A stretch of 64,000 nucleotides of DNA from an uncultured Acidobacteriota bacterium (GCA_963837345.1 CAWIMX010000001.1:3086959-3150958), one strand, 5' to 3'. Numbered from the stretch's first letter, positions 6,761-64,000 are shown. The notes: generated from the sequence alone by a model not told the origin. A program made the numbers and translations.

Positions 6761-6790
6761 CTCCTGTGGCGACTGCCGCGCGTCGCCGGT

Positions 6791-44684: not shown

Positions 44685-44702
44685 CTACCCAGACTTGGGT
44701 AG
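44685..44702. promoter_or_regulatory. CTACC-N8-GGTA box 1 (NarL-like 7-2-7' geometry) upstream of the DUF1592 operon
   Basis: CTACCCAGACTTGGGTAG is a perfect palindrome. It directly abuts TTGACC(44703-44708)-N18-GACAAT. Confidence 0.5.
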
Positions 44703-44788
44703 TTGACCCTCTTCGTTAGCGCCACTGACAATGTTTCCGAACTCCTCGGTCGGGATCTTACTGGCAGTGTCCACGGGGGTTAGCGCCT

Positions 44789-47260
44789 GTGATGAGAGTC
44801 CTGATACCTGTTGTGATCTTCTGCAGCATCGTCACGATGGAAGCTCGTTCACGCTTCCAGCTCGCAACGGACGGCCGCCGTCTGGCACCCGCGAGCGCAC
44901 AGACGGGGTTCGAGGCGCAGGGCGCTTCCGCAGCGTCATCTTCCGATGGTCGGATGTTGTTGGACACCTATTGTGTCACCTGCCACAATGCCCGCCTGCA
45001 CACCGCAAACCTCGCACTCGATAGTGCCAACCTCGACGATGTGGCGGGAAGCCCCGAGATCTGGGAGAACGTGGTTCGCAAGCTTCGAACCGGTGCGATG
45101 CCGCCCGCTGGACGCCCGCGTCCGGACGAGACGGCGGTGGCCGCGTTTGCCACCAGTCTGGAGACGGCGCTCGATCGGGCGGCGGCCGCGCATCCGAATC
45201 CCGGACGGCCGGCAATCCACCGTCTGAACCGGACCGAGTACGTGAACGCCATCCGTGACTTGTTCGATCTCGACGTGGATGGACGCGCACTGCTCCCGGG
45301 CGACAACTCGGATGCGCACGGGTTTGACAACGACGCCGATACGCTCTCGGTGTCGCCGCTCCTCATGGAGCGGTACCTTTCGGCCGCGCGAAAGATCAGC
45401 CGGCTGGTCGTTGGACGTCCGGCGGCGCCGGATCTGCAGCAATTCCGCGTCGATAAGCTGCTGGATCAGGATGATCGCCTCACGGAAAATCAGCCGTTCG
45501 GGTCCCGCGGAGGCGCGACGGCGCGCTACTACTTCCCGGCCGACGGCGAGTATGTCATCAAGGTCGATCTCGAGAAGACGGCGAACGACTATATCAAAGG
45601 GCTGGGCGCGGAACATCCATTGGACGTCCGGGTGGACGGCTCGCTGGTCAAGCGGTTCACGGTTGGGGGCGAGGAGTGGGTGAAGATGGCCCCGCCCGAG
45701 AACTACAGTGCGAACCTTCGGGCGGCCGACGATCGGTGGGAAGACTACGCCCACAACATGGATCGCGCGCTGCAACTCAGGATTCCCGTGAAGGCCGGCG
45801 AGCGGACCGTGAACGTGTCGTTCGTGCAGCAGCGCTGGTGGCCGGAGGGCGTCATTCAGCCGCAGGTGGGCGTGTCGCGGGATCGCAATGAGCTGCCGGA
45901 CGGAAATCCAAGCGTCGCCAGCATCACGATCAGCGGTCCATTCTCGACGTCAGGTCCGGGGAATTCGACGACGCGCCAGCGAGTGTTCGTGTGCTCGCCC
46001 TCGACGACGGCCGATGAAGAGCCGTGCGCCAAGGAAATCCTGTCCACGGTCGCGCGACGCGCATATCGGCGTCCCGTCACCGACGCCGACCTGGAGCCGC
46101 TGCTCAGCTTCTTTCAAGCCGGGCGCGGGGACGGGGATTTCGACGGCGGCATCCAGTTCGCGTTGGAGCGGCTGCTCGTGAGTCCGGCGTTTCTGTTCCG
46201 GATGGAGCAGGATCCGGCCGGAGCGGCGGCGGTCCATCGCATCTCTGATCTGGAACTCGCGTCTCGACTGTCCTTCTTTCTGTGGAGCAGCATTCCCGAC
46301 GACAGGTTGCTCGACGTGGCTGCCCGCGGGCAGCTCACGGACCCGGCCGTGCTCGCGCAGGAGGTGCGCCGGATGCTCGACGATCCGCGCGCCCAGGCCC
46401 TGGTCGACAACTTTGCGGGGCAGTGGCTGGTCGTCCGCAACATCCGCGATGTGATTCCCGACTCGGACTTGTTCCCGAATTTCGACGACAACCTGCGCGA
46501 AGCCTTCGAGCGGGAGACCAACCTGTTCATGGAGAGCCAGATCCGCGAGGATCACAGCATTGTGGATCTGCTCAATGCGAACTACACGTTCGTGAACGAG
46601 CGTCTGGCCCGGCACTACGGCATTCCAGGCATCTACGGAAATCAGTTCCGTCGCGTCACGTTTCCCAACGATGAGCGAGGCGGGCTGCTCGGGCAGGGTA
46701 GCATCCTCACCGTCACGGCCTACGCCAATCGTACGTCGCCGGTGCTGCGCGGCAAGTGGCTTCTCGAGAACATGCTCGGGACTCCGCCTCCGGCGCCGCC
46801 TCCTGGCGTGCCTCCGCTGAAGGAGAACACGGGCGAGGACGCACCGACTTCCGTTCGGGCACGGCTCGAAGAACACCGCCGCAATCCGATGTGCGCGAGT
46901 TGCCACGCGAGGATGGACCCATTGGGCTTCGCGCTGGAGAACTACGACGCCGTTGGCACCTGGCGGACCACCGACGAGACCGGCACGCCGATCGATTCGT
47001 CGGGGACGCTGCCCGATGGCAGCGCGTTCAAGGGACCGCAGGGCCTGCGGACGTTCCTGCTGAGCCGGCGCGACCAATTTGTGCAGACGGTCACCGAGAA
47101 ACTCCTGGCGTACGCGCTCGGTCGTGAGCTCGACTATTACGATGAACCGACGGTGCGACGGATCATGCGCGTCGCTGGCGATGACGACGACCGATGGTCG
47201 TCAGTGATTCTTGAGATTGTGAAGAGCACCCCGTTTCAGATGAGGAGGTCGGAGTCATGA
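44789..47260 (+). CDS. DUF1592/DUF1587/DUF1595-type multidomain protein with N-terminal haem-c motif
   Basis: 823 aa. Hydrophobic N-terminus. LLDTYCVTCHNARL CxxCH with RTGAMPP. A second CASCH motif near the C-terminus. Domain order is typical of planctomycete-type PSD/PSCyt proteins. Confidence 0.88.
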   Translation: MMRVLIPVVIFCSIVTMEARSRFQLATDGRRLAPASAQTGFEAQGASAASSSDGRMLLDTYCVTCHNARLHTANLALDSANLDDVAGSPEIWENVVRKLRTGAMPPAGRPRPDETAVAAFATSLETALDRAAAAHPNPGRPAIHRLNRTEYVNAIRDLFDLDVDGRALLPGDNSDAHGFDNDADTLSVSPLLMERYLSAARKISRLVVGRPAAPDLQQFRVDKLLDQDDRLTENQPFGSRGGATARYYFPADGEYVIKVDLEKTANDYIKGLGAEHPLDVRVDGSLVKRFTVGGEEWVKMAPPENYSANLRAADDRWEDYAHNMDRALQLRIPVKAGERTVNVSFVQQRWWPEGVIQPQVGVSRDRNELPDGNPSVASITISGPFSTSGPGNSTTRQRVFVCSPSTTADEEPCAKEILSTVARRAYRRPVTDADLEPLLSFFQAGRGDGDFDGGIQFALERLLVSPAFLFRMEQDPAGAAAVHRISDLELASRLSFFLWSSIPDDRLLDVAARGQLTDPAVLAQEVRRMLDDPRAQALVDNFAGQWLVVRNIRDVIPDSDLFPNFDDNLREAFERETNLFMESQIREDHSIVDLLNANYTFVNERLARHYGIPGIYGNQFRRVTFPNDERGGLLGQGSILTVTAYANRTSPVLRGKWLLENMLGTPPPAPPPGVPPLKENTGEDAPTSVRARLEEHRRNPMCASCHARMDPLGFALENYDAVGTWRTTDETGTPIDSSGTLPDGSAFKGPQGLRTFLLSRRDQFVQTVTEKLLAYALGRELDYYDEPTVRRIMRVAGDDDDRWSSVILEIVKSTPFQMRRSES

Positions 47261-48591
47261 TCATCACGAAGAAGACCATCTCGCGCCGTACTGTGTTACG
47301 CGGTCTCGGCGTGAGCCTGGCTCTGCCGTTTCTCGATGCAATGACTCCGGCGTTCGCCGCAATTGGGAAGCCGACGCGCCGCTTTGGAGCCGTCTATGTG
47401 CCGAACGGCATCCTGATGAGCGAGTGGACCCCCGCGACCGAGGGAGCGGGTTTTGCGTTCACGCCGACGCTCAGCGCGTTGGAGCCGTTTCGAGACTCCC
47501 TGCTGGTGCTTTCAGGGCTGAATGTGTCCAAGAACGCGGGCGCCAGTTTGCACTCGCGGGCCAGCACGCGGTGGTTGACGGGCGTCCCGCCGCGCGGCGT
47601 GCAGGCGCAGGCAGAGGTGTCGGCCGGCATTTCGATGGACCAGATCGCCGCGAAAACGCTCGGGCAGCAGACCCAGCTGGCCTCTCTCGAGGTGTCGCTG
47701 GAACCGAACGACTTCGCCGGTTCCTGCGATCCGGGTTTCAGCTGCGCGTACATCAATACGATTTCGTGGCGAGGCCCCACGACACCGCTGCCGATGGAAC
47801 ACAACCCCCGCGTGGTCTTCGAGCGGTTGTTCGGAGACACCGGCAGCACCGATCCAGCGGTGCGTCTCGCCCAGATCAGCAGAGGCCAGAGCATTCTCGA
47901 TTCCGTGATCGACGAAGCCGGGCACCTGACGACCCGACTCGGTGCGAGCGACCGGCTGAAACTGAACGAGTACCTGGACGCGCTTCGCGACATCGAGCGT
48001 CGTCTGCAGAAGGCGGAGGAGCAGAACGACAAAGAGCTGCCGATCGTCAGCCAGCCGGGCGCGATTCCGGCCAGCTACGAGGAGTACGCGAAACTGATGT
48101 TCGACCTGCAGGTGCTGGCGCATCAGACCGACCTCACGCGCATCACGACGTTCATGCTGGGGCGGGAGCTGAGCGGGCGACAGTACCCCGAGGTGGGCGC
48201 CCCGGACGGACACCACCCGACGTCGCACCATCAGAACGATCCGGCGAAGAAAGCAAACTACGCGAGAATCAACGCGTTTCACACCCAGCTGTTCGCCTAC
48301 TACCTGGAGAGACTGCAGGCGACGCCTGACGGCGACGGATCCTTGCTGGATCACATGATGCTGCTGTACGGCGCCGGCATGTCGGATGGCAATCGACACG
48401 CGACCGACGATCTTCCCCTGATTCTGGCGGGCGGCGGAGCCGGAGTGAAGGGAGGGCGTCACATCCAGTACCCGAGCGAGACGCCGCTACCCAACGTGCA
48501 TCTGACGTTGCTCGACGAGCTGGGAACGCCGGTGGATCATCTCGGGGACAGCACAGGGGAATTGCAACTGACGCCGCTCTCCCTCGCGTAG
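47257..48591 (+). CDS. DUF1552 domain protein with Tat signal
   Basis: 444 aa. ISRRTVLRGLGVSLALPFLDAM. ATGA overlap with the DUF1592 stop. Confidence 0.88.
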   Translation: MIITKKTISRRTVLRGLGVSLALPFLDAMTPAFAAIGKPTRRFGAVYVPNGILMSEWTPATEGAGFAFTPTLSALEPFRDSLLVLSGLNVSKNAGASLHSRASTRWLTGVPPRGVQAQAEVSAGISMDQIAAKTLGQQTQLASLEVSLEPNDFAGSCDPGFSCAYINTISWRGPTTPLPMEHNPRVVFERLFGDTGSTDPAVRLAQISRGQSILDSVIDEAGHLTTRLGASDRLKLNEYLDALRDIERRLQKAEEQNDKELPIVSQPGAIPASYEEYAKLMFDLQVLAHQTDLTRITTFMLGRELSGRQYPEVGAPDGHHPTSHHQNDPAKKANYARINAFHTQLFAYYLERLQATPDGDGSLLDHMMLLYGAGMSDGNRHATDDLPLILAGGGAGVKGGRHIQYPSETPLPNVHLTLLDELGTPVDHLGDSTGELQLTPLSLA

Positions 48592-48627
48592 CGCGGAGGC
48601 GGTGCCGATAGCGCGGTCGGAGAGGCC

Positions 48628-48873
48628 ATGCCGCTGTACGAATTCGTCTGTGGGTCGTGTGGCCAGCAGTTCGAAGCGCTCGTGCGACGCTCCGGGGCAC
48701 CCGTGTGTCCCCGGTGCTCGAGCAGTGATCTTCAGCGGGTGCCGTCGCTCTTCGCCGTGGACTCGCCGACCACGCGCAGAGCGGCGTTGGAATCGGGCCG
48801 TCGGCGCAATACGAAGACCGCGCGCGACAAGCAGGTCGCTGAACACGAGGAACGACACCACCATCACGATTGA
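48628..48873 (+). CDS. FmdB-family zinc-ribbon protein with His-rich tail
   Basis: 81 aa. MPLYEFVCGSCGQQFE...CPRCSSSD (CxxC...CxxC). C-terminal EHEERHHHHD. Confidence 0.85.
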   Translation: MPLYEFVCGSCGQQFEALVRRSGAPVCPRCSSSDLQRVPSLFAVDSPTTRRAALESGRRRNTKTARDKQVAEHEERHHHHD

Positions 48874-48902
48874 CGTTCGGGCATCGGTTGCCTGGAGGGC
48901 AC

Positions 48903-50525
48903 ATGCACGCCACATTCACTCGCGCCGGCTGCGGAGGCTGGAAGACGGCCCTGCTGGTGATCGGCTTAAGCCAGGCGACGCTTGTCGGCGCCGCCGGCGA
49001 CAACCTGCCCGAGGCGGCCCGCAATCGGGACGCGAGCACCATCGCGCGCCTGTTGAGCCAGGGCGCTGGTGTCGACGAACGTGAGCCGGACGGAGCCACC
49101 GCCCTCCATTGGGCGGTGTACTGGCATGACGTCGATACCGCCGATCGTCTGATTCGGGCCGGCGCCAAGGTGAATCTGGCCAACGATCTGGGCATTACGC
49201 CCCTGTTTCTGGCCAGCAGCCAGGAGGACGCGACGCTGGCCACCCGGCTGTTGGACGCGGGAGCGGACGCGAACAAGGCGACGCTGTCGGGGGAGACGCC
49301 TCTGATGGAAGCGGCGCGCACGGGACGTGTGGACGTGACACGGGCCCTGCTCGCGCACGGGGCTCAGGTGAATGCCAGCGAAACGACCCACGATCAGACG
49401 GCTCTGATGTGGGCGGCCGTGTCGGGCCATCCAGACGTCGTGCGCGCGCTGATCGAGGCGGGCGCCGACGTCCACGCTCGCTCGCAGACGCGCATCCGCA
49501 AAGTGATTCTGTCGTCGAATCGCCAGGCGAGCTACGACCTCGGTACGTATGAACGGCTCCTCAAGACCGGCGGCATGGTCGAGGTCCAGGAAGGCGGATA
49601 CACCGCGCTGCTGTTCACGGCGCAACAGGGCAATGTGGAGTCTGCGAAGATCTTGCTGGGTGCCGGCGCCGACGTCAACGACACCGCGCCGATTGGCATG
49701 AGCGCCCTGGTTGTGGCGGCGTACAGCGATCATGCGGGCATGGGCCAATTGCTGCTGGAGGAAGGCGCGGACCCCGATGCAGCCGGCGCCGGGTACACGG
49801 CCCTGCACGCGGCGATTCTCCGGGGCAACCTGGAGTTTGTCGAGGCTCTCCTGGCACACGGCGCGAATCCCAACCTGCCCCTCACGAAGGCGAATGGCGC
49901 GAGGCGTCAGAGCGCGGACTATGCGTTTGGCGACACGCTGGTTGGCGCGACGCCGATCTATCTCGCCGCAAAATTTGCCGAGATTCCGATCATGCGCGCC
50001 CTCGCCGCCGCCGGCGCAGACTTGCGGTTCACAATGCCAGACGGCACGACGCCAATGATGGCGGCGCTGGACCTGCCCAAGACCGACTCGGGAAACGTCG
50101 AAGGCCTGGGGAGAGATCGGCGCGATCGATACGTCTTCTTTCGTCGCATCAAGACAGAATCGCCGGACGATTTCACGCCCAAGTCGCCCGAGGAGGCAGA
50201 ACGTGACGCTCTGGCGATGGTCACGATGGAAGTCAATGCCGGGGTCGATGTCAACGCGGCCAACTCGGACGGAGACACCGCGCTGCATTTCGCAGCGTTC
50301 GAAGGGCTGAACAGCGTGATTCAGTTCCTCGTGGATCATGGCGCGAACGTCAACGCCCGGAACGGGCGAAATCAGACGCCGGTCGACATGGCCGAAGCCC
50401 CGCGCAGCAACCGTGGCGGCGATCCCTTGCCGATCAAGGCGGATTCGGCCGCGCTGTTGCGGACCCTCGGTGGCGAAGAGGGCGGAGTCAAACTGGACGA
50501 GAGGATCTATCGACGCCAGCGCTGA
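48903..50525 (+). CDS. secreted ankyrin-repeat protein
   Basis: 540 aa from MHATFTRAGCGGWKTALLVIGLSQATLVGAAG (GGAGGG RBS). A TTG alternative at 48870 overlaps the previous stop. Many ANK units (DGATALHWAV..., GITPLFLAS..., GETPLMEAAR..., GDTALHFAAFEG...). Confidence 0.85.
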   Translation: MHATFTRAGCGGWKTALLVIGLSQATLVGAAGDNLPEAARNRDASTIARLLSQGAGVDEREPDGATALHWAVYWHDVDTADRLIRAGAKVNLANDLGITPLFLASSQEDATLATRLLDAGADANKATLSGETPLMEAARTGRVDVTRALLAHGAQVNASETTHDQTALMWAAVSGHPDVVRALIEAGADVHARSQTRIRKVILSSNRQASYDLGTYERLLKTGGMVEVQEGGYTALLFTAQQGNVESAKILLGAGADVNDTAPIGMSALVVAAYSDHAGMGQLLLEEGADPDAAGAGYTALHAAILRGNLEFVEALLAHGANPNLPLTKANGARRQSADYAFGDTLVGATPIYLAAKFAEIPIMRALAAAGADLRFTMPDGTTPMMAALDLPKTDSGNVEGLGRDRRDRYVFFRRIKTESPDDFTPKSPEEAERDALAMVTMEVNAGVDVNAANSDGDTALHFAAFEGLNSVIQFLVDHGANVNARNGRNQTPVDMAEAPRSNRGGDPLPIKADSAALLRTLGGEEGGVKLDERIYRRQR

Positions 50526-50656
50526 CGGATGATCGCCTTGCGGCAGTCTCGGCGTGGTCGATTCAAGCGCGTCAATCGGCGTGCCTGACGGCCACGCGCG
50601 TCCGGAATTCAGAAAGCCGAACACCCTCCCGGCCCCATCCCAGAATTCTGCCGTAG

Positions 50657-50674
50657 CTACCTGATCCAGGGTAT
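50657..50674. promoter_or_regulatory. CTACC-N8-GGTA box 2 upstream of TonB receptor copy 1
   Basis: CTACCTGATCCAGGGTAT overlaps by 1 nt TTGCGC(50674-50679)-N16-CAGAAT. Confidence 0.45.
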
Positions 50675-50684
50675 TGCGCAAGAT

Positions 50685-50706
50685 CTGTGATTCACCAGAA
50701 TCACAG
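50685..50706. promoter_or_regulatory. copy-1-specific palindrome over the predicted spacer and -10 region
   Basis: CTGTGATTC-ACCA-GAATCACAG is a perfect 9-bp inverted repeat in a locally AT-rich stretch. Confidence 0.4.
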
Positions 50707-50890
50707 TCTATGGATACGTCTTCTTTATGAGATGCACATTACATCGTGATGTACGGCAAGTATTTCGATCTTGAGTGTAAGCAGAACTCGTGTCTCTCGG
50801 GTTGAAGCGGCGGTCGTGTCCGCAGAGCCCCATGGCAGGGCCGACGGATTTCGTCGGCACATGACGCACTGTGCGCTGCAAGGAGAGAGT

Positions 50891-53785
50891 ATGAAGCTCG
50901 AAGGCCTCGTGAGGAAGAGTTCGCGGCGTCAGCTGGCGTTGTGCCTGGTCGTGGGCCTCATCGGCATCGCTCCGGCCGCGTCGGCGCAGCAGCAGGCCAG
51001 CATCATCGGACGCGTGGTCGACGACAGCGGGGGCGTCCTGCCCGGGGTCACGGTGACCGTGGCGAGTCCGGCGCTGCAGCTGCAGAGCGTCACGGCGGTG
51101 ACCGACGGCCAGGGCGAGTACCGGGTCACGACATTGCCGATCGGCGTCTACGCGGTGACCTACACCCTGAGCGGCTTCCAGACGGTGGCCCGGGAAGACG
51201 TCCGGCTGACCGCCGGGTTCACGGCGCGGCTGGACGTGTCGCTGAAGGTGGGGGCGGTGGAGGAGGCGATTACGGTGTCGGGGGTGTCGCCGGTCATCGA
51301 CGCCACGTCGACGACGACCCGGACGCAGCTGACGCGGGAGACGCTCGAGCTGACGCCGACGAACCGGAACAGCATTTCGGGGCTGATGGCGCAGACGCCG
51401 GGCGCGCGGCCGGCGCTCGACGTGGGCGGGGAAACGATGCAGAGTCCGCCGGCGTTTCATGCGTTCGGCCAGGACGGGGAGTCGTCGCAGTCGATCGAAG
51501 GCGTGGTGACCAACAACCCGAAGTCCACCAACCAGGGCGGGAACTACTGGGACTACTCGTCGTTCGACGAGGCGGTGGTGGGCACGATGGCGCACGACGC
51601 GGAGGTGCCGACGCGAGGCGTCTACGTGAACGCGATCATCAAGTCGGGCGGGAACGATTTTCACGGAAGCCTCTTCAGCTCCGGCACGGGACGAAAGTTC
51701 GTGAACGAGAACGTCGACGAGAAGCTGGCGGCGGCCGGGATCAGCGGCGGCAACCGGACGAACGCGCGCTGGGACGTCAGCGGGGACGTGGGCGGCCGCC
51801 TGATTCGCGACAAGCTGTGGTTCTATGTTTCCGCCCGGACGCGCGGCGACCATACCGAATCGATCGGCGGCTTCCAGCCCGACGGCTCACCCGCGGTTCA
51901 GACCGGAGGCAACAAGTTTCACACCGAGAAGCTGACGTACCAGATCAGCCAGGCGAACCGTCTGACGTTCTTCGACACGTGGGCCGAGAAGCTGCGGACC
52001 GACTCGGGCGTATCGTCACTCGTGGCCTGGGAATCGCGGATCGACCAGACGCTGGCCCATCACACCGGGAAGGTGGAGTGGCAGGTGGTCAAAGGCGGCT
52101 CGTTCGTGAGCAGCGCGCAATTCGGCTACTGGACCGGCGGCAGCCAGCAGCCTTGGAGCGGCCATACGACCGATCCCGCGACGCGTGACTTGGTGACGTT
52201 GCAGGTGACGGGCGCCAGCACGAGTGCGGGGCAGCAGACGACCGATCATCAGATCGGGCCCAAGTGGACGATGAGCTATTACCGGTCGAACTGGCTGGGG
52301 AACCACGATTTCAAGGCCGGCCTGGAGTATCTGGACCGGGCGTCGGACCGGCCGTGGGTGATCGGGGAGGGCGGCAACTACCAGCGGATCCTGCAGGCGG
52401 GCGTGCCGTTCGAGATCATCACCTGGAACTATCCGATCACGCCGGAGAACCCGATTCACTATTTTGCGACCTACATCCAGGACAGCTGGACGCTCGGGCG
52501 CCGACTGACGCTGAATCTGGGCGTGCGCTACGCCCACGACAACGGCTTCGTGCCCGAACAATGCCGCGACGAGGCGGCGCCGGCGCCGGCCAACGTCGTC
52601 GCGCCCGCGTCGTGTTTCCCGGCGCGGCAATTCAACATCTGGACGCCGGTCGTCCCGCGGCTGCACGCGGCCTATGACGTGGCGGGGGACGGCACGACGG
52701 TCATCAAGGGGGGCTGGGGCGTCTACGCGCACCTGCGGTCGGTCGACGAGCTCACCCTGGCCAATCCGAACGTGGCGACGTCGACGACCTACCTCTGGCA
52801 CGACCTGAACGGCAACGGGGACTACGACGGGGGCGAGATCAATCTGGACGTGAACGGCCCCGATTTCATCAAGACGAGTGCCCAGGGAAACGCGACGCTG
52901 GCCAACGGGATTCCCAATCCCAACGAGAAGGAGCCGACGACCGACGAGTTCACGGTGTCTGTCGAGCGGCAACTGGTGCCGGGATGGGCGCTGCGGGCGA
53001 GCGGCATCTACTCGCGGACGCACGACACGTATCGGCTCCAGAACAGCCTGCGGCCGCCCGACACCTACAGCGTCGCGGTGACCAATCCGGACCCGGGGCC
53101 CGACGGGAAGGTCGGGACGACGGACGATCCGGGCACCACGCTGACCTACTACGAATATCCCGCGGCGCTGGCCGGCGCCGACTTCCAGTTGCCCTGGCTC
53201 GTCAACGATGCGAAAGCGAATCAGACCTATGGCAGCTTCGAGCTGGCCATCAGCAAGCGCCTGGCCAACCGGTGGCAGTTCATGGCGTCGCATTCGGCGA
53301 CGAAGAAACACATCCCGATCCGGCCGGTGGGCAGTCCGAACGGGCTGGCGATCTCGGTCGCGACGGATGACCCGAATGCGGAAATCCACAACAGCGACGA
53401 CACCTGGGAGTGGCTGACCCGCGCGGAAGGGGCGTATCTGTTCCCGTTCGACGCGCTCGTGTCGTTCCACTACGAGCTGCGCAGCGGAGATCCGCAGGCG
53501 CGGACCGTGCTCCTGCGAGGCGGCAAGACCATTCCGTCGATCACCCTGAACACCGAGCCTCTCGGCGCGCTTCGGTTGCCGAACATCAGCCTGCTGGATC
53601 TGCGGTTCGAGAAGACGCTGCGCATCACGCCGACGCAGAAGGTGGCGGCGCGCGTGAACATCTACAACGCCATGAACATCAACACGGTGACGAGCCGGAC
53701 CGTCCAATCCGGCGCCAACTATCTGCGGCCGACCGGGATCGTGACCGGCCGCACGTTCGAATTCGGCGCCACCTACAGCTTCTGA
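50891..53785 (+). CDS. TonB-dependent receptor with N-terminal carboxypeptidase-regulatory-like domain (Oar-like), copy 1
   Basis: 964 aa from MKLEGLVRKSSRRQLALCLVVGLIGIAPAASAQQ (AGGAGAG RBS). IIGRVVDDSGGVLPGVTVTV CarboxypepD_reg motif, plug region, C-terminal ...FEFGATYSF. Confidence 0.9.
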   Translation: MKLEGLVRKSSRRQLALCLVVGLIGIAPAASAQQQASIIGRVVDDSGGVLPGVTVTVASPALQLQSVTAVTDGQGEYRVTTLPIGVYAVTYTLSGFQTVAREDVRLTAGFTARLDVSLKVGAVEEAITVSGVSPVIDATSTTTRTQLTRETLELTPTNRNSISGLMAQTPGARPALDVGGETMQSPPAFHAFGQDGESSQSIEGVVTNNPKSTNQGGNYWDYSSFDEAVVGTMAHDAEVPTRGVYVNAIIKSGGNDFHGSLFSSGTGRKFVNENVDEKLAAAGISGGNRTNARWDVSGDVGGRLIRDKLWFYVSARTRGDHTESIGGFQPDGSPAVQTGGNKFHTEKLTYQISQANRLTFFDTWAEKLRTDSGVSSLVAWESRIDQTLAHHTGKVEWQVVKGGSFVSSAQFGYWTGGSQQPWSGHTTDPATRDLVTLQVTGASTSAGQQTTDHQIGPKWTMSYYRSNWLGNHDFKAGLEYLDRASDRPWVIGEGGNYQRILQAGVPFEIITWNYPITPENPIHYFATYIQDSWTLGRRLTLNLGVRYAHDNGFVPEQCRDEAAPAPANVVAPASCFPARQFNIWTPVVPRLHAAYDVAGDGTTVIKGGWGVYAHLRSVDELTLANPNVATSTTYLWHDLNGNGDYDGGEINLDVNGPDFIKTSAQGNATLANGIPNPNEKEPTTDEFTVSVERQLVPGWALRASGIYSRTHDTYRLQNSLRPPDTYSVAVTNPDPGPDGKVGTTDDPGTTLTYYEYPAALAGADFQLPWLVNDAKANQTYGSFELAISKRLANRWQFMASHSATKKHIPIRPVGSPNGLAISVATDDPNAEIHNSDDTWEWLTRAEGAYLFPFDALVSFHYELRSGDPQARTVLLRGGKTIPSITLNTEPLGALRLPNISLLDLRFEKTLRITPTQKVAARVNIYNAMNINTVTSRTVQSGANYLRPTGIVTGRTFEFGATYSF
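50978..53785 (+). repeat. tandem duplicate unit, copy 1 (mature-protein coding part only)
   Basis: Colinear with 54341-57148 at a constant offset of 3363 nt with no indels. Similarity starts at the signal-peptide cleavage region and ends at the stop codon. Confidence 0.9.
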
Positions 53786-53796
53786 GATCGCCACGC

Positions 53797-53814
53797 GACA
53801 GGGAACGCCCTGTC
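53797..53814 (+). terminator. short hairpin after receptor copy 1 (no U-tract)
   Basis: GACAGGG-AACG-CCCTGTC, 12 nt after the stop. Confidence 0.35.
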
Positions 53815-54072
53815 CCAGCCCCTCGACGGCGCGCGTCCCCGGCCGAAGCCCGGGGGCGCGCGCCAGGCCTTCCCCTGCCGAATTCGGCGATTCCCAACAG
53901 ACCGACCTGATCCCCTCGGGGCCGATCGAGTTCCCGCATCATAAGTAAACAGGAAGGATTCGCATTCGCGCGTAAGGCAATACTCGCTCCGAGACCAGAA
54001 GTGTGAATGCGCATTTCCATTCCGACGACATTTTGTATCGATCAGTTGCGCGGACCCTCGATTTCCAACCTC

Positions 54073-54090
54073 CTACCTGCTCGAGGGTAT
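54073..54090. promoter_or_regulatory. CTACC-N8-GGTA box 3 upstream of TonB receptor copy 2
   Basis: CTACCTGCTCGAGGGTAT overlaps by 1 nt TTGATG(54090-54095)-N17-TAGAAA(54113-54118). Confidence 0.45.
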
Positions 54091-54253
54091 TGATGATTCA
54101 TTCGCTGACATCTAGAAACGCAGCGTGAATCCGACGCGCAGCGCACCGATCGTCCGCCGTTCCCGACCACGGGTATCAGGCAAGGCGTGTCCGGACAGGG
54201 CCTTCGGCCCTCATGGGTGGACGGCAGACGGTCGACTGCCAGGAGGAGAATGT

Positions 54254-57148
54254 ATGAGGCACGAATCCCGCGGGATGAAGAGACAGTGGCACCGGCTGGC
54301 GCTATTCGTGGCGGTGGTTCTCCTCGGCGTCCCTCCGGTCGCGTCGGCGCAGCAGCAGGCCAGCATCATCGGACGCGTGGTCGACGACAGCGGGGGCGTC
54401 CTGCCCGGGGTCACGGTGACCGTGGCGAGTCCGGCGCTGCAGCTGCAGAGCGTCACGGCAGTGACCGACGGCCAGGGCGAGTACCGGGTCACGACATTGC
54501 CGATCGGCGTCTACGCGGTGACCTACACCCTGAGCGGCTTCCAGACGGTGGCCCGGGAAGACGTCCGGCTGACCGCCGGGTTCACGGCGCGGCTGGACGT
54601 GTCGCTGAAGGTGGGGGCGGTGGAGGAGGCGATTACGGTGTCGGGGGTGTCGCCGGTCATCGACGCCACGTCGACGACGACCCGGACGCAGCTGACGCGG
54701 GAGACGCTCGAGCTGACGCCGACGAACCGGAACAGCATTTCGGGGCTGATGGCGCAGACGCCGGGCGCGCGGCCGGCGCTCGACGTGGGCGGGGAAACGA
54801 TGCAGAGTCCGCCGGCGTTTCATGCGTTCGGCCAGGACGGGGAGTCGTCGCAGTCGATCGAAGGCGTGGTGACCAACAACCCGAAGTCCACCAACCAGGG
54901 CGGGAACTACTGGGACTACTCGTCGTTCGACGAGGCGGTGGTGGGCACGATGGCGCACGACGCGGAGGTGCCGACGCGAGGCGTCTACGTGAACGCGATC
55001 ATCAAGTCGGGCGGGAACGATTTTCACGGAAGCCTCTTCAGCTCCGGCACGGGACGAAAGTTCGTGAACGAGAACGTCGACGAGAAGCTGACGGCGGCCG
55101 GGATCAGCGGCGGCAACCGGACGAACGCGCGCTGGGACGTCAGCGGGGACGTGGGCGGCCGCCTGATTCGCGACAAGCTGTGGTTCTATGCCTCGGCCCG
55201 GACGCGCGGCGACCATACCGAATCGATCGGCGGCTTCCAGCCCGACGGCTCACCCGCGGTTGAGACCGGAGGCAACAAGTTTCACACCGAGAAGCTGACG
55301 TACCAGATCAGCCAGGCGAACCGTCTGACGTTCTTCGATACGTGGGCCGAGAAGCTGCGGACCGACTCGGGGACGTCGTCGCTCGTGGCCTGGGAATCGC
55401 GGATCGACCAGACGCTGGCCCATCACACCGGAAAAGCCGAGTGGCAGTTCGTCAAAGGCGGCTCGTTCGTGAGCAGCGCGCAATTCGGCTACTGGACCGG
55501 CGGCAGCCAGCAGCCCTGGAGCGGCCATACGACCGATCCCGCGACCACGGACCTGGTGACGTTACAGGTGACGGGCGCCAGCACGAGTGCGGGGCAGCAG
55601 ACGACCGATCATCAGATCGGGCCCAAGTGGACGATGAGCTATTACCGGTCGAACTGGCTGGGGAACCACGATTTCAAGGCCGGCCTGGAGTATCTGGATC
55701 GGGCGTCGGACCGGCCGTGGGTGATCGGGGAGGGCGGCAACTACCAGCGGATCCTGCAGGCGGGCGTGCCGTTCGAGATCATCACCTGGAACTATCCGAT
55801 CACGCCGGAGAACCCGATTCACTATTTTGCGACCTACATCCAGGACAGCTGGACGCTCGGGCGCCGACTGACGCTGAATCTGGGCGTGCGCTACGCCCAC
55901 GACAACGGCTTCGTGCCCGAACAATGCCGCGACGAGGCGGCGCCGGCGCCGGCCAACGTCGTCGCGCCCGCGTCGTGTTTCCCGGCGCGGCAATTCAACA
56001 TCTGGACGCCGGTCGTCCCGCGGCTGCACGCGGCCTATGACGTGGCGGGGGACGGCACGACGGTCATCAAGGGGGGCTGGGGCGTCTACGGGCATCTGCG
56101 GTCGGTCGACGAGCTCACCCTGGCCAATCCGAACGTGGCGACGTCGACGACCTACCTCTGGCACGACCTGAACGGCAACGGGGACTACGACGGGGGCGAG
56201 ATCAATCTGGACGTGAACGGCCCCGATTTCATCAAGACGAGTGCCCAGGGAAACGCGACGCTGGCCAACGGGATTCCCAATCCCAACGAGAAGGAGCCGA
56301 CGACCGACGAGTTCACGGTGTCTGTCGAGCGGCAACTGGTGCCGGGATGGGCGCTGCGGACGAGCGGGATCTACTCGCGGACGCACAACACGTATCGGCT
56401 CCAGAACAGCCTGCGGCCGCCCGACACCTACAGCGTCGCGGTGACCAATCCGGACCCGGGGCCCGACGGGAAGGTCGGGACGACGGACGATCCGGGCACC
56501 ACGCTGACCTACTACGAATATCCCGCGGCGCTGGCCGGCGCCGACTTCCAGCTGCCCTGGCTCGTCAACGATGCGAAAGCGAATCAGAGCTATGCCAGTT
56601 TCGAGCTGGCCATCAGCAAGCGCCTGGCCAACCGGTGGCAGTTCATGGCGTCGCATTCGGCGACGAAGAAACACATCCCCATTCTGCCGGTCGGCAGCGC
56701 GAACGGGCTGGCGATCTCGGTCGCGACGGATGACCCGAATGCGGAAATCCACAACAGCGACGACACCTGGGAGTGGCTGACCCGCGCGGAAGGGGCGTAT
56801 CTGTTCCCGTTCGACGCGCTCGTGTCGTTCCACTACGAGCTGCGCAGCGGAGATCCGCAGGCGCGGACCGTGCTCCTGCGAGGCGGCAAGACCATTCCGT
56901 CGATTACGTTGAAAGCAGAACCCATGGGGTCACTGCAATTGCCGAACATCAGCCTGCTGGATCTGCGGTTCGAGAAGACGCTGCGCCTCACACCGACGCA
57001 GAAGGTGGCGGCGCGCGTGAACATCTACAACGCCATGAACATCAACACGGTCACGAGCCGGACCGTCCAATCCGGCGCCAACTATCTGCGGCCGACCGGG
57101 ATCGTCACCGGCCGCACCTTCGAATTCGGCGCCACCTACAGCTTCTGA
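54254..57148 (+). CDS. TonB-dependent receptor with carboxypeptidase-regulatory-like domain (Oar-like), copy 2
   Basis: 964 aa from MRHESRGMKRQWHRLALFVAVVLLGVPPVASAQQ (AGGAGGAG RBS). The mature part is about 98% identical to copy 1. Confidence 0.9.
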   Translation: MRHESRGMKRQWHRLALFVAVVLLGVPPVASAQQQASIIGRVVDDSGGVLPGVTVTVASPALQLQSVTAVTDGQGEYRVTTLPIGVYAVTYTLSGFQTVAREDVRLTAGFTARLDVSLKVGAVEEAITVSGVSPVIDATSTTTRTQLTRETLELTPTNRNSISGLMAQTPGARPALDVGGETMQSPPAFHAFGQDGESSQSIEGVVTNNPKSTNQGGNYWDYSSFDEAVVGTMAHDAEVPTRGVYVNAIIKSGGNDFHGSLFSSGTGRKFVNENVDEKLTAAGISGGNRTNARWDVSGDVGGRLIRDKLWFYASARTRGDHTESIGGFQPDGSPAVETGGNKFHTEKLTYQISQANRLTFFDTWAEKLRTDSGTSSLVAWESRIDQTLAHHTGKAEWQFVKGGSFVSSAQFGYWTGGSQQPWSGHTTDPATTDLVTLQVTGASTSAGQQTTDHQIGPKWTMSYYRSNWLGNHDFKAGLEYLDRASDRPWVIGEGGNYQRILQAGVPFEIITWNYPITPENPIHYFATYIQDSWTLGRRLTLNLGVRYAHDNGFVPEQCRDEAAPAPANVVAPASCFPARQFNIWTPVVPRLHAAYDVAGDGTTVIKGGWGVYGHLRSVDELTLANPNVATSTTYLWHDLNGNGDYDGGEINLDVNGPDFIKTSAQGNATLANGIPNPNEKEPTTDEFTVSVERQLVPGWALRTSGIYSRTHNTYRLQNSLRPPDTYSVAVTNPDPGPDGKVGTTDDPGTTLTYYEYPAALAGADFQLPWLVNDAKANQSYASFELAISKRLANRWQFMASHSATKKHIPILPVGSANGLAISVATDDPNAEIHNSDDTWEWLTRAEGAYLFPFDALVSFHYELRSGDPQARTVLLRGGKTIPSITLKAEPMGSLQLPNISLLDLRFEKTLRLTPTQKVAARVNIYNAMNINTVTSRTVQSGANYLRPTGIVTGRTFEFGATYSF
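54341..57148 (+). repeat. tandem duplicate unit, copy 2
   Basis: See 50978-53785. Confidence 0.9.
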
Positions 57149-57155
57149 GCGGCGT

Positions 57156-57192
57156 ACGCATGATCGCCTCCTCGTGCGAGGCGATCATGCGT
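57156..57192 (+). terminator. 15-bp perfect hairpin after receptor copy 2 (no U-tract)
   Basis: ACGCATGATCGCCTC-CTCGTGC-GAGGCGATCATGCGT, beginning 8 nt after the stop. Confidence 0.5.
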
Positions 57193-57314
57193 GCTTCCCC
57201 GGCGTGAAGGCACGCCCGACCGCCGAGCCTCCCCCCGTCCGGTCCGCTCACCGCGATAGAATACCCGCACCGTCGAACATCTCAATCCGCGAAAGGGAGG
57301 CCAGAATAGGCGGC

Positions 57315-60300
57315 GTGACCGGCCGGTGGAAATTTCTCGCGGCGTACGGCTGTTCGGGCCTCGCCGCCCTCGCCTACGAAGTCGTCTGGACGCGATGGCT
57401 GACGCTGTACATGGGCCACTCCACGGCAGCGGCGAGCACCGTGTTTGCTGCCTTCATGGGCGGCATGGGTGCGGGCTCGGCGGCGATCGCGCACTTCGCT
57501 CCGCGGCTTTCTCGGCGCCAGGCGCTCTACGCGTACGCGATGCTCGAGGCGTTTGTCGCCCTGGCGGCCCTGGCCGTGCCACTGGCACTGACCGCGTCCA
57601 GCCCGGTCCTCGTGTGGGCCTATCGGGACGGCGCCGTGGGACCGCTCTTCCCCCTCGTCAGACTGGCCTGCTGTTTTGTGATTCTCGTCGTGCCGGCCGC
57701 CGCGCTCGGCAGCACATTTCCCTTGGCCGTCCGTTGGTTTGTTCCGACGGGCCCTCGACCCGGGCAGCTCGCTGGACAGTTGTACGCCGTCAACACGTTC
57801 GGAGCGGCAATCGGGACAATCGCCGCGGGCTATTTCCTGATTCCGGCGATCGGCCTGAACGGCACGACGCTGGTAGGCGTAGCGGCAGGGGCGATCAGCA
57901 TCGCCCTGACGCTCTCGACGGCCAAGGATGCGGGCGACGAGGCGTCCGAGCTGACGTCCCAGCCACCGACTTCCGCATCCGGGCCTCGAGCGCGCGTCGA
58001 CCGATCCGGGCACGGGCGGGGGGGCCGCTCGGCTTCGCCCGCCTTGCCGGAGACCTTCTGGCTCGCCGCGACGGTGCTGGCGCTGACGGGCTTCGCGACG
58101 TTCATGTATGAAATCGCCTGGACGCGAGTCTTTGCCATGATCATCGGGCCGTCGACGTACGCCATTGCGGCGACGTTGACCGCGTTCATTACGGGCCTGG
58201 CGATGGGCTCGTTGGTGGGATCACGACTGGCCGGACGCTGGCTTCGGCCAACCCTGGCGCTCTCGCTGGCGCTGATTGGAGGCGCGGTGGCCGCCAGCCT
58301 GGCGGCGTTTGAGGCCGGAGGGCCGCTTCTGCGATTTCTTGTCGCGCATGCCGGCACCGCCGACACCTTCACTGCCGCCCTCTGGCGCCATTCCCTGATC
58401 GTCGCCGCGCTGGTCGCCCCGACCGCCGTGGCCTTGGGTCTCGCGTTTCCACTGTCCCTGCAGCTTGCCGGCGGGGGCCACGAACCGGAGTCGCGGCGCT
58501 TGGGAACCGCGTATGCCATCAACACGCTGGCCGCCGTCGCCGGAGCGCTGGCGGCGGGATTTGTGGCCATCCCGCTGGTCGGCCTTCAGCAGACCCTTCG
58601 TGTCGCCAGTGCGCTGCTGCTGGTCGGTGCGGCCGGTGTGAGCGTGCGATCCCGGTTCGCTACACGCGTGCGCTGGAAGCTGCTGGGGCTGGAGACGGCA
58701 GTCGTCATCCTCGTGTTCGTCGGGCCGCGGTGGGATCGCGACTTGATTTCCAGTGGGATGTACATGTACGCGAGGCAGATTCCGCAGAGTCTCGACGTCG
58801 AGACGGCTCTGAGAGCCGGCACCTTGTTGTACTACCGGGAGGGGGCGACGGCGACGGTGTCGGTCAGGCGCCTGGCCGGAGACATCTCGCTGGCGATTGA
58901 CGGCAAAGTCGACGCGTCGACATCGGGCGACATGCTCACCCAGAAGCTTCTGGCGCATGTTCCGCTGCTGCTGCATCCCGATCCGCGGGCCGTGGCCATT
59001 ATCGGCCTGGGAAGCGGCGTCACGCTCGCCTCGGCGCTCGTGCATCCAGTGGCGTCCGTCGACGTCGTCGAAATTTCCCCGGAAGTCGTGCAGGCGTCAC
59101 GCTATTTTTCTGGGGCCAACCATCACGCTCTGGACGACGCGCGGACGCGATTGATTGTCGGCGATGGTCGCTCGCACCTGTCGCTGGCATCGCGTCGCTA
59201 CGACGTCATCATTTCCGAGCCGTCGAACCCCTGGATGGCGGGCGTCGCGGCGCTGTTCACGCGCGAGTTCTTCGAGGCCGCCAGGCGCCGGCTGGCGCCC
59301 GGCGGCATCATCTGCCAGTGGGCCCACACGTACGACATCAGCGATGCCGATCTGCGATCGATCGTCGCGACGTTCAACTCGGTCTTCCAGAACGGCGCGA
59401 TGTGGCTGGTCGGCGACGGCGATCTGTTGCTCGTCGGATCGACGGAGCCGACGGGCGTGAACCTCGACAACATCGCGGCGGCGTGGAACCGGCAGGGCGT
59501 CGCCGCCGATCTGGCCGAGGTCTCCGTGGACGATGCGTTTTCGATCCTGTCGATGTTCATCGGCGGCCCGCAGGAACTGCGTCGGTACGCCGACGGGGCC
59601 GCCCTGCAAACCGACGATCGCATGGCCCTCGAGTTTTCCGGGCCCTCTGCGCTGTACGCCCCCGCCATCCGGCGCGAGAACGTCTCCATACTCCGCGGTC
59701 TTGCCCGAGAAGGATCGGTGCCTGACGCGGTGGCGCGGGCGATGGCGGCTGCGGGAGCCGCCGAATGGCGTCATCGTGGCGCGATGATGTTCCGCGCCGC
59801 CGCCTACGACGCCGCCTACGATGCCTACCTGACGGCATTGCGATCGGATCCAGGAGACGGGGAGGCGCTCGACGGTCTCGTGCGAAGCGCGGTCGCCGTT
59901 CACCGACAAGCCGATGCCATGATGACGTTGCGGTCCTTCATCGAGGCACATCCGCGGACCATCGCAATCCGCGTCGCGGCGTCGAAGTTGGCTGCGGCAG
60001 GAGGGAGCCTCACGGAGGCGACAAACCTCGCACTCGACGCCTGTCAGATCGAGCCGGTCGACCCGGCCGCCCTGGAGCAGCTCGCCTCCGTGTACTCCGA
60101 TGCCGGCGACGTCGAGAGGCTGGAGCTGGCGGTCGACGAGCTCCAACGGCGATTCCCGGAGAGAGCGGGCTCCTGGTACTACGCCGGAGCCGCGACGTTC
60201 ATGCGCGGGCAACTTCCCCTCGCGCTGGCACAGGTGACGCGCGCGGTGGCGCTCGATCCCATGCGAGCGGCCGCGCGCAATTTGGAGGGCGCGATTCAAG

Positions 60301-60533
60301 CGACGCGTGGCGACGTCGTGGCCGCCAGGAAGGCATTTGAGGCGGCCCTGGTCCTCGACGCCCGGGACAGCGCCACATATGTGAATCTCGGCCTGCTCGA
60401 TCTGGCGGCGGGCAACCCGTCTGCGGCGGTCAGTCGCTTCAGCGAAGCGCTGGTGCTCGATCCGGGATCGACGGCCGCTCAACAGGGCCTGGCAGAATCG
60501 AGAAGCGCACCCGGCGGACGCGCCGCGAAATGA
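57315..60533 (+). CDS. polytopic membrane domain fused to a spermidine-synthase-like methyltransferase fold and C-terminal TPR repeats
   Basis: 1072 aa from GTG 57315 (TAGAAT at 57257-57262, GGGAGG upstream). Two blocks of TM helices. VAIIGLGSGVTL...VDVVEISPEVV...DVIISEPSNPW aminopropyltransferase-like motifs. TPR-like C-terminus. Confidence 0.85.
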   Translation: MTGRWKFLAAYGCSGLAALAYEVVWTRWLTLYMGHSTAAASTVFAAFMGGMGAGSAAIAHFAPRLSRRQALYAYAMLEAFVALAALAVPLALTASSPVLVWAYRDGAVGPLFPLVRLACCFVILVVPAAALGSTFPLAVRWFVPTGPRPGQLAGQLYAVNTFGAAIGTIAAGYFLIPAIGLNGTTLVGVAAGAISIALTLSTAKDAGDEASELTSQPPTSASGPRARVDRSGHGRGGRSASPALPETFWLAATVLALTGFATFMYEIAWTRVFAMIIGPSTYAIAATLTAFITGLAMGSLVGSRLAGRWLRPTLALSLALIGGAVAASLAAFEAGGPLLRFLVAHAGTADTFTAALWRHSLIVAALVAPTAVALGLAFPLSLQLAGGGHEPESRRLGTAYAINTLAAVAGALAAGFVAIPLVGLQQTLRVASALLLVGAAGVSVRSRFATRVRWKLLGLETAVVILVFVGPRWDRDLISSGMYMYARQIPQSLDVETALRAGTLLYYREGATATVSVRRLAGDISLAIDGKVDASTSGDMLTQKLLAHVPLLLHPDPRAVAIIGLGSGVTLASALVHPVASVDVVEISPEVVQASRYFSGANHHALDDARTRLIVGDGRSHLSLASRRYDVIISEPSNPWMAGVAALFTREFFEAARRRLAPGGIICQWAHTYDISDADLRSIVATFNSVFQNGAMWLVGDGDLLLVGSTEPTGVNLDNIAAAWNRQGVAADLAEVSVDDAFSILSMFIGGPQELRRYADGAALQTDDRMALEFSGPSALYAPAIRRENVSILRGLAREGSVPDAVARAMAAAGAAEWRHRGAMMFRAAAYDAAYDAYLTALRSDPGDGEALDGLVRSAVAVHRQADAMMTLRSFIEAHPRTIAIRVAASKLAAAGGSLTEATNLALDACQIEPVDPAALEQLASVYSDAGDVERLELAVDELQRRFPERAGSWYYAGAATFMRGQLPLALAQVTRAVALDPMRAAARNLEGAIQATRGDVVAARKAFEAALVLDARDSATYVNLGLLDLAAGNPSAAVSRFSEALVLDPGSTAAQQGLAESRSAPGGRAAK

Positions 60534-60570
60534 CGATGAGCCGACTCGCGCCTGGGCGCGGGCTTGACGG

Positions 60571-60588
60571 CTACCCGGAATCAGGTAT
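60571..60588. promoter_or_regulatory. CTACC-N8-GGTA box 4 upstream of the sensor kinase
   Basis: CTACCCGGAATCAGGTAT. It is flanked by TTGACG (60564-60569) and lies upstream of TGGACA(60599-60604)-N18-CATACT(60623-60628). Confidence 0.45.
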
Positions 60589-60672
60589 GCCGCAGGAGTG
60601 GACAGTTCTTCCTGGCAAATTGCATACTCTTCGCTGAAATCACGATCGGGGCTCCGAGCCTGCCGGTGGCGG

Positions 60673-63618: not shown

Positions 63619-63646
63619 CGTCTGATTTGGTAAAGGGGAACCCACC

Positions 63647-64000
63647 GTGCGCGATCGGATCCGCGTCTTGTGCGTCGAAGATCATCAGCTCGTCCGAGAA
63701 GGCATCACCTTGATTATCGACCGTGAGCCCGACATGAAGGTGGTCGCCGCCGCGGCCACTGGCGAGGACGCGGTGCAGTTGCACCGCCAGTGCCGGCCCG
63801 ACGTCACCTTGATGGATCTGCAGCTGGGCTCCATGACGGGAGTGGACGCCATCCGGGAGATTCGAGGGGGCACTCCCGACGCGCGCATCATCGTCTTGAC
63901 GATGTCCCAGGGCGACGAAGACATCTACCGGGCCTTGCAGGCCGGCGCCGCCACCTACCTGCTCAAGGACACGATGTCGAGCGACTTGATTCGCGTGATT
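63647..64000 (+). CDS. response regulator receiver domain (NarL/LuxR-type expected), 3' end beyond the window
   Basis: GTG 63647 after AAAGGGGA. VRDRIRVLCVEDHQLVREGITLII...DVTLMDLQLGSMTGVDAI...IIVLT. Open to the window end, so absent from the ORF track. Confidence 0.85.
   Translation, partial: MRDRIRVLCVEDHQLVREGITLIIDREPDMKVVAAAATGEDAVQLHRQCRPDVTLMDLQLGSMTGVDAIREIRGGTPDARIIVLTMSQGDEDIYRALQAGAATYLLKDTMSSDLIRVI

Follow-up and report, generated by a model that had tools for sequence, protein, structure and literature searches.

We analysed a stretch of 64,000 nucleotides from the genome of an uncultured Acidobacteriota bacterium (GCA_963837345.1 CAWIMX010000001.1:3086959-3150958; the window), which has a G+C content of 68 % and whose nearest public relatives belong to the Vicinamibacterales. 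It contains an operon with a DUF1592-type cytochrome gene and a DUF1552 gene, two tandem genes for outer-membrane receptors, and the genes for a sensor kinase and a response regulator (Table 1). A first-pass annotation had recognised a palindromic box of the form CTACC-N8-GGTA upstream of the operon, of each receptor gene and of the kinase gene, and had proposed that the regulator binds these four sites in the manner of E. coli NarL, thereby controlling the three other units as well as its own operon. The evidence collected here indicates that the boxes are most probably operator sites of this two-component system.

Palindromic boxes and the genes behind them

The four 18-mers were recovered at the annotated coordinates, and all of them are intergenic and located 5' of a gene on the plus strand, as had been described. 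The pattern CTACC-N8-GGTA occurs at four places in the window, where 100 dinucleotide-preserving shuffles predict 0.03 matches; box 1, a full palindrome, matches on both strands. The pattern TACCY-N6-RGGTA yielded exactly four matches (0.02 expected from shuffles); because these are the four boxes and nothing else, all eight half-sites read TACC(C/T). No further exact copy was present in the 64 kb, for which coding and non-coding DNA were searched alike. Boxes with one mismatch were found at three additional places (0.74 expected) and boxes with two mismatches at 109 (94.5 expected), the latter being background level. Because these counts are close to background, little if anything can be learned from degenerate matches, and we kept the one-mismatch sites at 35314, 37235 and 54160 as well as all two-mismatch sites out of the regulon. 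The match at 35314 extends across the stop codon of a gene for a short-chain fatty acid transporter, 70 bp 5' of the first of two adjacent paralogous DUF5916 genes (35398-37698 and 37998-39971), and is probably a chance match.

Behind box 1, the DUF1552 gene is probably co-transcribed with the PSCyt3/PSD gene, because its start overlaps the preceding stop codon. On the minus-strand side of the same box, towards the TraB/GumN-family gene, no TTG or −10 geometry was found. The DUF1592-DUF1552 pair also occurs in some of the related loci described below (L013, L020, L088 and L092), and the ankyrin gene follows 3' of the pair in the window, L013 and L088, is divergent from it in L020 and stands behind the receptor gene in L092.

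The two receptor genes form a tandem duplication (50876-53786 and 54236-57149, 96.9 % DNA identity) with unrelated promoter regions: the identity begins just 15–18 nt before the start codons, and the DNA further 5', which holds boxes 2 and 3, cannot be aligned. The start of copy 1 was set at the signal peptide MKLEGLVRK..., resulting in a protein of 964 aa, equal to the length of database gene calls. The hairpin behind copy 1 is probably a terminator which separates the two receptor units. Because the box-bearing flanks are unalignable and copy 1 is followed by this hairpin, the duplication did not give rise to boxes 2 and 3, and we rejected their interpretation as a duplication artefact. The SpeE/TPR gene is probably co-transcribed with receptor copy 2, and the order of a receptor gene followed by a SpeE/TPR gene recurs in L090. 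Two nearby receptor genes are also part of the clusters in L088, where they are adjacent, and in L092, where the ankyrin gene lies between them.

If the promoter calls given in Table 1 are right, the receptor genes have long leaders of about 130–180 nt. The predicted 5' leader of copy 1 contains a palindrome, TACATCGTGATGTA, at 50737-50750, and that of copy 2 the one-mismatch box TTCCCGACCACGGGTA (54160-54175), 70 bp 3' of box 3. Another perfect palindrome with 9-bp arms, CTGTGATTC-acca-GAATCACAG (50685-50706), overlaps the predicted −10 hexamer CAGAAT of P2 and lies 12 bp past box 2. It has no counterpart at the promoter of receptor copy 2 or at those of orthologues and could represent a second operator, e.g. 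for a repressor.

Table 1. Positions of boxes, predicted promoters, genes and other features in the window.
Feature	Position	Strand	Remarks
TraB/GumN-family gene	43698..44582	-	Pfam PF01963, 8.5e-76; divergent from box 1
Box 1, CTACCCAGACTTGGGTAG	44685..44702	+	Perfect 7-4-7 palindrome with core TACC-N8-GGTA
Promoter P1 (predicted), TTGACC-N18-GACAAT	44703..44732	+	Begins 1 nt after the 16-bp core
PSCyt3/PSD protein with cytochrome c domain (DUF1587, 1595, 1592, 1588, 1585)	44789..47260	+	Pfam
DUF1552 (HXXSHH) protein	47257..48591	+	Pfam PF07586, 4e-97
Ankyrin-repeat protein, without own box	48870..50525	+	Pfam; after a gap behind the DUF1552 gene
Box 2, CTACCTGATCCAGGGTAT	50657..50674	+	Motif match
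Promoter P2 (predicted), TTGCGC-N16-CAGAAT	50674..50701	+	Directly behind the core
Receptor copy 1, CarboxypepD_reg-type outer-membrane beta-barrel, TonB-dependent-receptor-like	50891..53785	+	Pfam
GC-rich hairpin, 15-bp arms	53828..53864	+	43 nt 3' of the stop codon of receptor copy 1
Box 3, CTACCTGCTCGAGGGTAT	54073..54090	+	Motif match
Promoter P3 (predicted), TTGATG-N17-TAGAAA	54090..54118	+	Directly behind the core
Receptor copy 2, CarboxypepD_reg type	54254..57148	+	96.9 % DNA identity to copy 1
Spermine-synthase-like (SpeE) and TPR protein	57174..60533	+	Pfam; 25 nt after receptor copy 2
Box 4, CTACCCGGAATCAGGTAT	60571..60588	+	85 nt 5' of the kinase start codon
Candidate kinase promoter, TGGACA-N18-CATACT	60599..60628	+	9/12 matches; centre of box 4 near −55
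Sensor kinase: Reg_prop propellers, Y_Y_Y, HisKA_3, HATPase_c	60673..63618	+	Pfam
Response regulator, cut by the window end	63647..64000	+	Full 209-aa protein read from L004

The two-component system and the promoter geometry

The sensor kinase consists of a periplasmic part with Reg_prop beta-propellers and a Y_Y_Y domain (Pfam, 2e-43 and 3e-11) and a cytoplasmic part with HisKA_3 (PF07730) and HATPase_c domains. Its sensor part matches the structures 4A2L (9e-32) and 3V9F (8e-30) in the PDB, and its kinase core matches DesK (9e-15). The first base of the box 4 core lies 101 nt before the kinase start codon, and the regulator gene begins 29 nt after the kinase stop codon. Because the latter gene is cut by the end of the window, its annotation as a NarL/LuxR-type regulator had been a prediction from the kinase domains. 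An exact-protein look-up of the kinase led to contig L004 of the same genome, which corresponds to positions 59299-64000 of the window at 4701 of 4702 nt (99.98 %) and contains the full regulator gene (L004:4349-4978). The encoded 209-aa protein combines a receiver domain (REC, PF00072 Response_reg) with a GerE/LuxR helix-turn-helix (HTH, PF00196), its best structure matches being VraR (4e-40), NarL (2e-35) and DesR (3e-29); the kinase and a regulator of the predicted type are thus encoded side by side. The HTH domain aligns without gaps to residues 156-207 of NarL. Bases are contacted in NarL by Lys188, Val189 and Lys192 (PMC10853779), and the equivalent residues of the window regulator are Gln, Val and Lys.

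The contig also revealed a fifth box, TACCTGCTATCAGGTA, directly followed by TTGTCT and located 215 bp 3' of the regulator gene (equivalent to window position 64493-64508). It lies upstream of a gene for a protein with a signal of the twin-arginine translocation (Tat) type and an Oxidored_molyb domain, i.e. a molybdopterin oxidoreductase. Between the regulator gene and box 5, there is an open reading frame for a hydrophobic peptide of 52 aa (L004:5032-5190, window-equivalent 64330-64488), which may code for a small membrane protein transcribed together with the kinase and regulator genes.

E. coli NarL recognises heptamers with the consensus TACYYMT. In a 7-2-7 site, two heptamers are arranged as inverted repeats 2 bp apart (PMC10853779), and the TACC-N8-GGTA spacing of all five boxes corresponds to this arrangement, in agreement with the first-pass annotation. 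Its promoter calls were also reproduced: TTG hexamers abut boxes 1 to 3, and the −10-like hexamers are present as written, beginning 25 nt (P1), 22 nt (P2) and 23 nt (P3) after the end of the box. The predicted hexamers place the centres of boxes 1, 2, 3 and 5 at −45.5, −42.5, −43.5 and −42.5, respectively. E. coli NarL binds at −43.5 in the yeaR promoter and at −44.5 in the ogt promoter, just 5' of the −35 hexamer, which is an activation position (PMC10853779). An activator-type placement had been claimed for the window, and the same geometry returned in many independent promoters: of 26 credible sites, 18 are flanked by a TTG that starts within 0–1 nt of the box end on one side but not on the other, and similarity to TATAAT on the TTG side peaks 23–24 nt after the box end. 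Nine hexamers with A at the second and T at the sixth position begin at these two offsets, whereas most offsets between 9 and 21 have no such hexamer. The distance between box and −10 is conserved over at least 18 promoters. The −10 hexamers themselves (GACAAT, CAGAAT, TAGAAA, TGTAAA and AAGAAT) are weak, which fits a dependence of these promoters on an activator.

Occurrence of the box in related loci

A metagenome scan with the kinase sequence found more than 460 relatives and returned 80 loci (given here as L numbers) with kinases of 25–44 % identity. Upstream sequence was usable in 71 loci, 10 of which have an exact TACC-N8-GGTA within 150 bp 5' of the estimated kinase start (0.12 expected, P about 1e-16). 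Boxes were 50 times denser 5' of the kinases than in the other 849 kb of the loci. The box therefore accompanies homologous two-component systems in other Acidobacteriota. In L082, the kinase homologue is preceded by TACCCGAAATCAGGTA, which is nearly identical to box 4.

The box was also retained upstream of orthologues of the presumed target genes. Receptor orthologues with 70 % identity in Vicinamibacterales metagenome-assembled genomes (MAGs; L001, L085, L086 and L087), 69 % (L090) and 64 % (L088) possess an exact box with G and TTGAC(T/G) behind it, the rest of their upstream DNA being unalignable; receptor homologues with 58 % (L089), 54 % (L091), 53 % (L092) and 47 % (L002) identity have none. 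In L085, L086 and L087, two genes for insertion sequence transposases (DDE_Tnp_1_4 and DDE_3; L085:15017-17992) are located between the kinase and regulator genes, and the receptor-upstream box is intact in all three MAGs. DUF1592-type homologues are found behind a box in L020, L077 and L088, and in the DUF1592 promoter of L085, the left half of box 1 is decayed, whereas its right half-site and both promoter hexamers, −35 and −10, are retained (TTGGGTAGTTGACC...GACAAT). The gene order in L088 begins with the histidine kinase and response regulator genes, an exact box, DUF1592-DUF1552-ankyrin genes, another exact box and a series of receptor, receptor, phosphatase, cytochrome c and molybdopterin oxidoreductase genes, and continues with a one-mismatch box and a second DUF1592-DUF1552-ankyrin operon. 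Other intergenic boxes precede a CarboxypepD_reg receptor gene, a phosphotriesterase-family gene and an uncharacterised gene (L048), a pyrroloquinoline quinone (PQQ) dehydrogenase gene (L005), a PSCyt1/PSCyt2 gene (L012) and a DUF1587/cytochrome gene (L077). In L020, variant boxes of the form TACC-N8-AGTA precede an operon of DUF1592, DUF1552, kinase and regulator genes and a pair of cytochrome c and PQQ dehydrogenase genes. The families which recur as targets are CarboxypepD_reg receptors, DUF1592/DUF1587 proteins, PSCyt2 proteins, PQQ dehydrogenases with cytochrome c and glyoxalases, and the recurring neighbours of the box in the related loci therefore belong to the same families as in the window.

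The regulators of the related loci are 42–73 % identical, yet differ in their recognition helices, and the presence of the box varies together with them. An exact non-coding box was found in 8 of 12 loci with Val at the position of NarL Val189, versus 1 of 29 loci with another residue (Ile, Gly, Ala, Ser, Asn, Asp, Gln or His). The pattern holds in the close group of regulators with at least 55 % identity and in one distant Val-containing locus, L043. Upstream of kinases whose regulators have the helix TVKNHVK, we found no alternative palindrome, just a conserved TATACT element resembling a −10 hexamer.

Some matches in coding sequence were excluded. TACC-N8-GGTA within the kinase genes of L026, L028, L039 and L045 encodes the Reg_prop peptide YLWLGT (TAC CTC TGG CTG GGT ACC, TACCTCTGGCTGGGTACC), which is also present with one mismatch at position 60853 of the window; these codons will produce systematic false positives in any genome-wide scan for the motif. 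Other coding matches in L017, L020 and L064 were disregarded as well.

The closest homologues of the window kinase (L007, L008, L010, L011 and others) were set aside as a separate subfamily. No TACC boxes occur in their loci, and their operons include an ABC transporter and an HTH_17-TOBE gene. A conserved gene precedes the kinase gene in L007, L008, L010, L011, L018, L040, L061, L067 and L069; in L011, it is the ModE-like HTH_17-TOBE gene, itself located behind the gene for an ABC-transporter ATPase. The regulator helices read TVQIHVK in L007, L008 and L010 and TAHVHVR in L011, so that the NarL-189 position is occupied by Ile in three of the four readable regulators and by Val in L011. The TOBE domain may hint at a link of this subfamily to oxyanions.

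Interpretation of the boxes as operators

We propose that the kinase senses a periplasmic ligand and would then phosphorylate the NarL-family regulator, a dimer of which would bind the 16-bp palindrome TACCYN-N4-NRGGTA via inverted half-sites in the NarL 7-2-7 spacing. The site ends 0–1 nt before the predicted −35 and 22–25 nt before a weak −10, and its centre therefore lies at about −42.5 to −45.5, a class-II-like position from which the phosphorylated regulator would activate the promoters in the way known for NarL at yeaR and ogt. The units controlled in this way would be the DUF1592-DUF1552(-ankyrin) genes, receptor copy 1, receptor copy 2 with the SpeE/TPR gene, the molybdopterin oxidoreductase gene just beyond the window behind box 5 and, probably via the differently placed box 4, the kinase-regulator operon itself. 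We regard the assignment of the boxes to this regulator as quite likely, and activation as the direction of regulation as somewhat less so. The mechanism would be that of a conventional two-component regulon, which is larger than the four units proposed in the annotation: box 5 adds one gene, and the related loci add PQQ dehydrogenase with cytochrome c, glyoxalase and PSCyt2 genes.

Several observations weigh against this assignment or parts of it. The half-sites share only TACCY with the NarL heptamer and differ from it at positions 6 and 7: in the window, G predominates at position 6 and T is absent from position 7, and 46 half-sites over the loci have C, G or A at position 6 and A or G at position 7. 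Among the residues equivalent to the NarL contacts, Lys188 is replaced by Gln. The association of Val-189 with the box (Fisher p = 4e-5) does not account for shared ancestry; the regulators of L006, L009 and L011 have Val at this position, yet no exact box was found in these loci, and L020 has only TACC-N8-AGTA variants. The frequencies given for the box refer to the window itself (64 kb) and to related loci totalling about 1.2 Mb. The −10 hexamers are weak, and only P1 among P1 to P3 passes the 9-of-12 match criterion of the promoter scanner. No −35 and −10 hexamers were found at the conserved distance from box 4 on either strand, and the kinase-upstream boxes of L017, L019, L073, L077, L082 and L083 have their TTG flank on the opposite strand, facing divergent genes for a receptor (L019, L077 and L083), a DUF6152 protein (L082), a glyoxalase-fold protein (L073) and an uncharacterised protein (L017). 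The association of the box with the two-component system is strong, and control of the three other units, as proposed in the first-pass annotation, agrees with the geometry and conservation of the target promoters. Autoregulation via box 4, which had been proposed along with it, is weakly supported and constitutes the weakest link, because box 4 lacks the geometry and many kinase-upstream boxes face divergent genes.

Since the box reaches up to or includes the first base of the −35 hexamer and NarL-family proteins are capable of repression, the same regulator might also act as a repressor which blocks RNA polymerase at the −35 until a signal arrives; the presence of TTGACG immediately 5' of box 4 would even allow this box to occupy a promoter spacer. 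We consider this unlikely: repressor sites usually span the region from −35 to +1 in a less constrained register, while the fixed centre of the boxes near −43.5 is the documented position for activation by NarL (PMC10853779), and weak −10 hexamers (GACAAT, CAGAAT, TAGAAA, AAGAAT) are expected of activator-dependent promoters. Less probable still is binding by another, unlinked transcription factor whose sites happen to lie close to the two-component system. This idea could draw on L090 and L092, which contain the target families without a two-component system within 10 kb, but L092 also lacks exact boxes, no other DNA-binding protein was detected among the window genes scanned, and neither the 50-fold higher density of boxes beside homologous kinases nor their dependence on a residue in the recognition helix of the regulator would be expected.

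The palindromes might also act as hairpins in nucleic acids, such as terminators, attenuators or RNA elements. As RNA, box 1 indeed forms a good fold (−13 kcal/mol, z = −3.6) and box 4 a moderate one (z = −2.5), but boxes 2 and 3 fold like shuffled sequence (z = −1.4 and −0.45), no T-run follows any of the boxes, and conservation affects the outer TACC/GGTA rather than the complementarity of the inner positions. Because they are located 5' of the predicted −35 hexamers, the boxes would lie outside the transcripts of the predicted promoters, and Rfam matches nothing in the window, including the receptor leaders; this makes a hairpin function highly improbable. Least credible, and effectively excluded, are chance matches or functionless remnants of repeats or duplications. 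Boxes 2 and 3 do precede recently duplicated genes, and the motif can arise in coding DNA, as in the YLWLGT codons of Reg_prop; against that stand the 0.02 sites expected from shuffles, the unalignable flanks of boxes 2 and 3, and the retention of the box at a fixed distance to the hexamers in the unalignable upstream regions of orthologues with 64–70 % identity. Operator function for the adjacent NarL-family regulator remains the best explanation for the boxes.

The proposed system shares with NarX/NarL (NarQ/NarP) of E. coli the HisKA_3 kinase core, the REC and GerE/LuxR HTH domains of the regulator, the inverted TACC/TACY half-sites in the total spacing TACC-N8-GGTA and the equivalents of Val189 and Lys192. 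The predicted promoters resemble those of yeaR and ogt, where a single NarL dimer site near −43.5, just 5' of the −35, mediates activation (PMC10853779). In contrast to the four-helix nitrate sensor of NarX, the window kinase has a large, unrelated periplasmic beta-propeller/Y_Y_Y sensor; the putative targets are outer-membrane receptors and PSCyt/DUF1552 genes instead of nitrate-respiration genes, and the regulator sequence has slightly more in common with VraR than with NarL. DesK/DesR and VraS/VraR (LiaS/LiaR) of the Firmicutes are the best structure matches to the kinase core and the regulator. Kinases of the DesK/VraS type, however, sense through the membrane and do not possess a large periplasmic domain. 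Autoregulated operons are typical of this group, and its operators differ in sequence from the box described here.

The sensor part is homologous to that of the hybrid two-component systems (HTCS) which control SusC/SusD loci in Bacteroides (e.g. BT4663, PDB 4A2L/4A2M; 3V9F; 3OTT) and contain the same double propeller of Reg_prop repeats with Y_Y_Y, and CarboxypepD_reg-type TonB-dependent-like receptors are encoded beside the sensor in both cases. Unlike in HTCS, the window kinase ends after HATPase_c, has a DesK-like HisKA_3 instead of a HisKA domain and lacks a fused receiver or AraC-type HTH, with a separate NarL-type regulator being encoded next to it. Because of the DesK-like HisKA_3 core and the separate GerE-type regulator, the system is not a hybrid. 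It would represent a case in which the sensor module of an HTCS has been connected to a NarL-type output, with the promoter geometry of NarL retained. No SusD-like gene or glycoside hydrolase gene was present among the genes examined at the locus.

It is conceivable, albeit doubtful, that the regulon is the counterpart of a polysaccharide utilization locus (PUL) in Acidobacteriota, which couples uptake to periplasmic oxidation by co-inducing receptors, DUF1592/DUF1552 and ankyrin proteins and redox enzymes. The imported substrate would then be detected by the HTCS-like sensor in the periplasm, whose DNA-binding output is encoded separately, the receptors would be of the Oar/SusC-like kind, and the redox enzymes would comprise the molybdopterin oxidoreductase, PQQ dehydrogenase with cytochrome c and glyoxalase-fold dioxygenases. 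In that case, the 'Planctomycete-specific' cytochrome gene pairs would gain their first functional context and a testable route to an inducer. A genomic survey of 2017 listed the function of the PSCyt3 genes and of a conserved neighbour of unknown family as unknown (PMC5615132); in the loci examined here, the conserved neighbour is DUF1552. Our literature search retrieved no earlier description of an operator or regulon of this kind. The operator TACCYN-N4-NRGGTA and its predicted targets concern a family of two-component systems which is very common in soil Acidobacteriota, and the connection of DUF1592/DUF1552 (PSCyt3/HXXSHH) pairs and CarboxypepD_reg receptors to one sensor offers an experimental handle on these proteins.

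The window also contains a pair of cytochrome c and PQQ dehydrogenase genes on the minus strand (5129-7603), about 37 kb from the regulon. We rejected this operon as a regulon member, as its upstream region has no box. The encoded proteins are 36 % (cytochrome c) and 48 % (PQQ dehydrogenase) identical to those of the L020 pair behind the variant box, and homologues of these genes carry boxes in L020 and L005.

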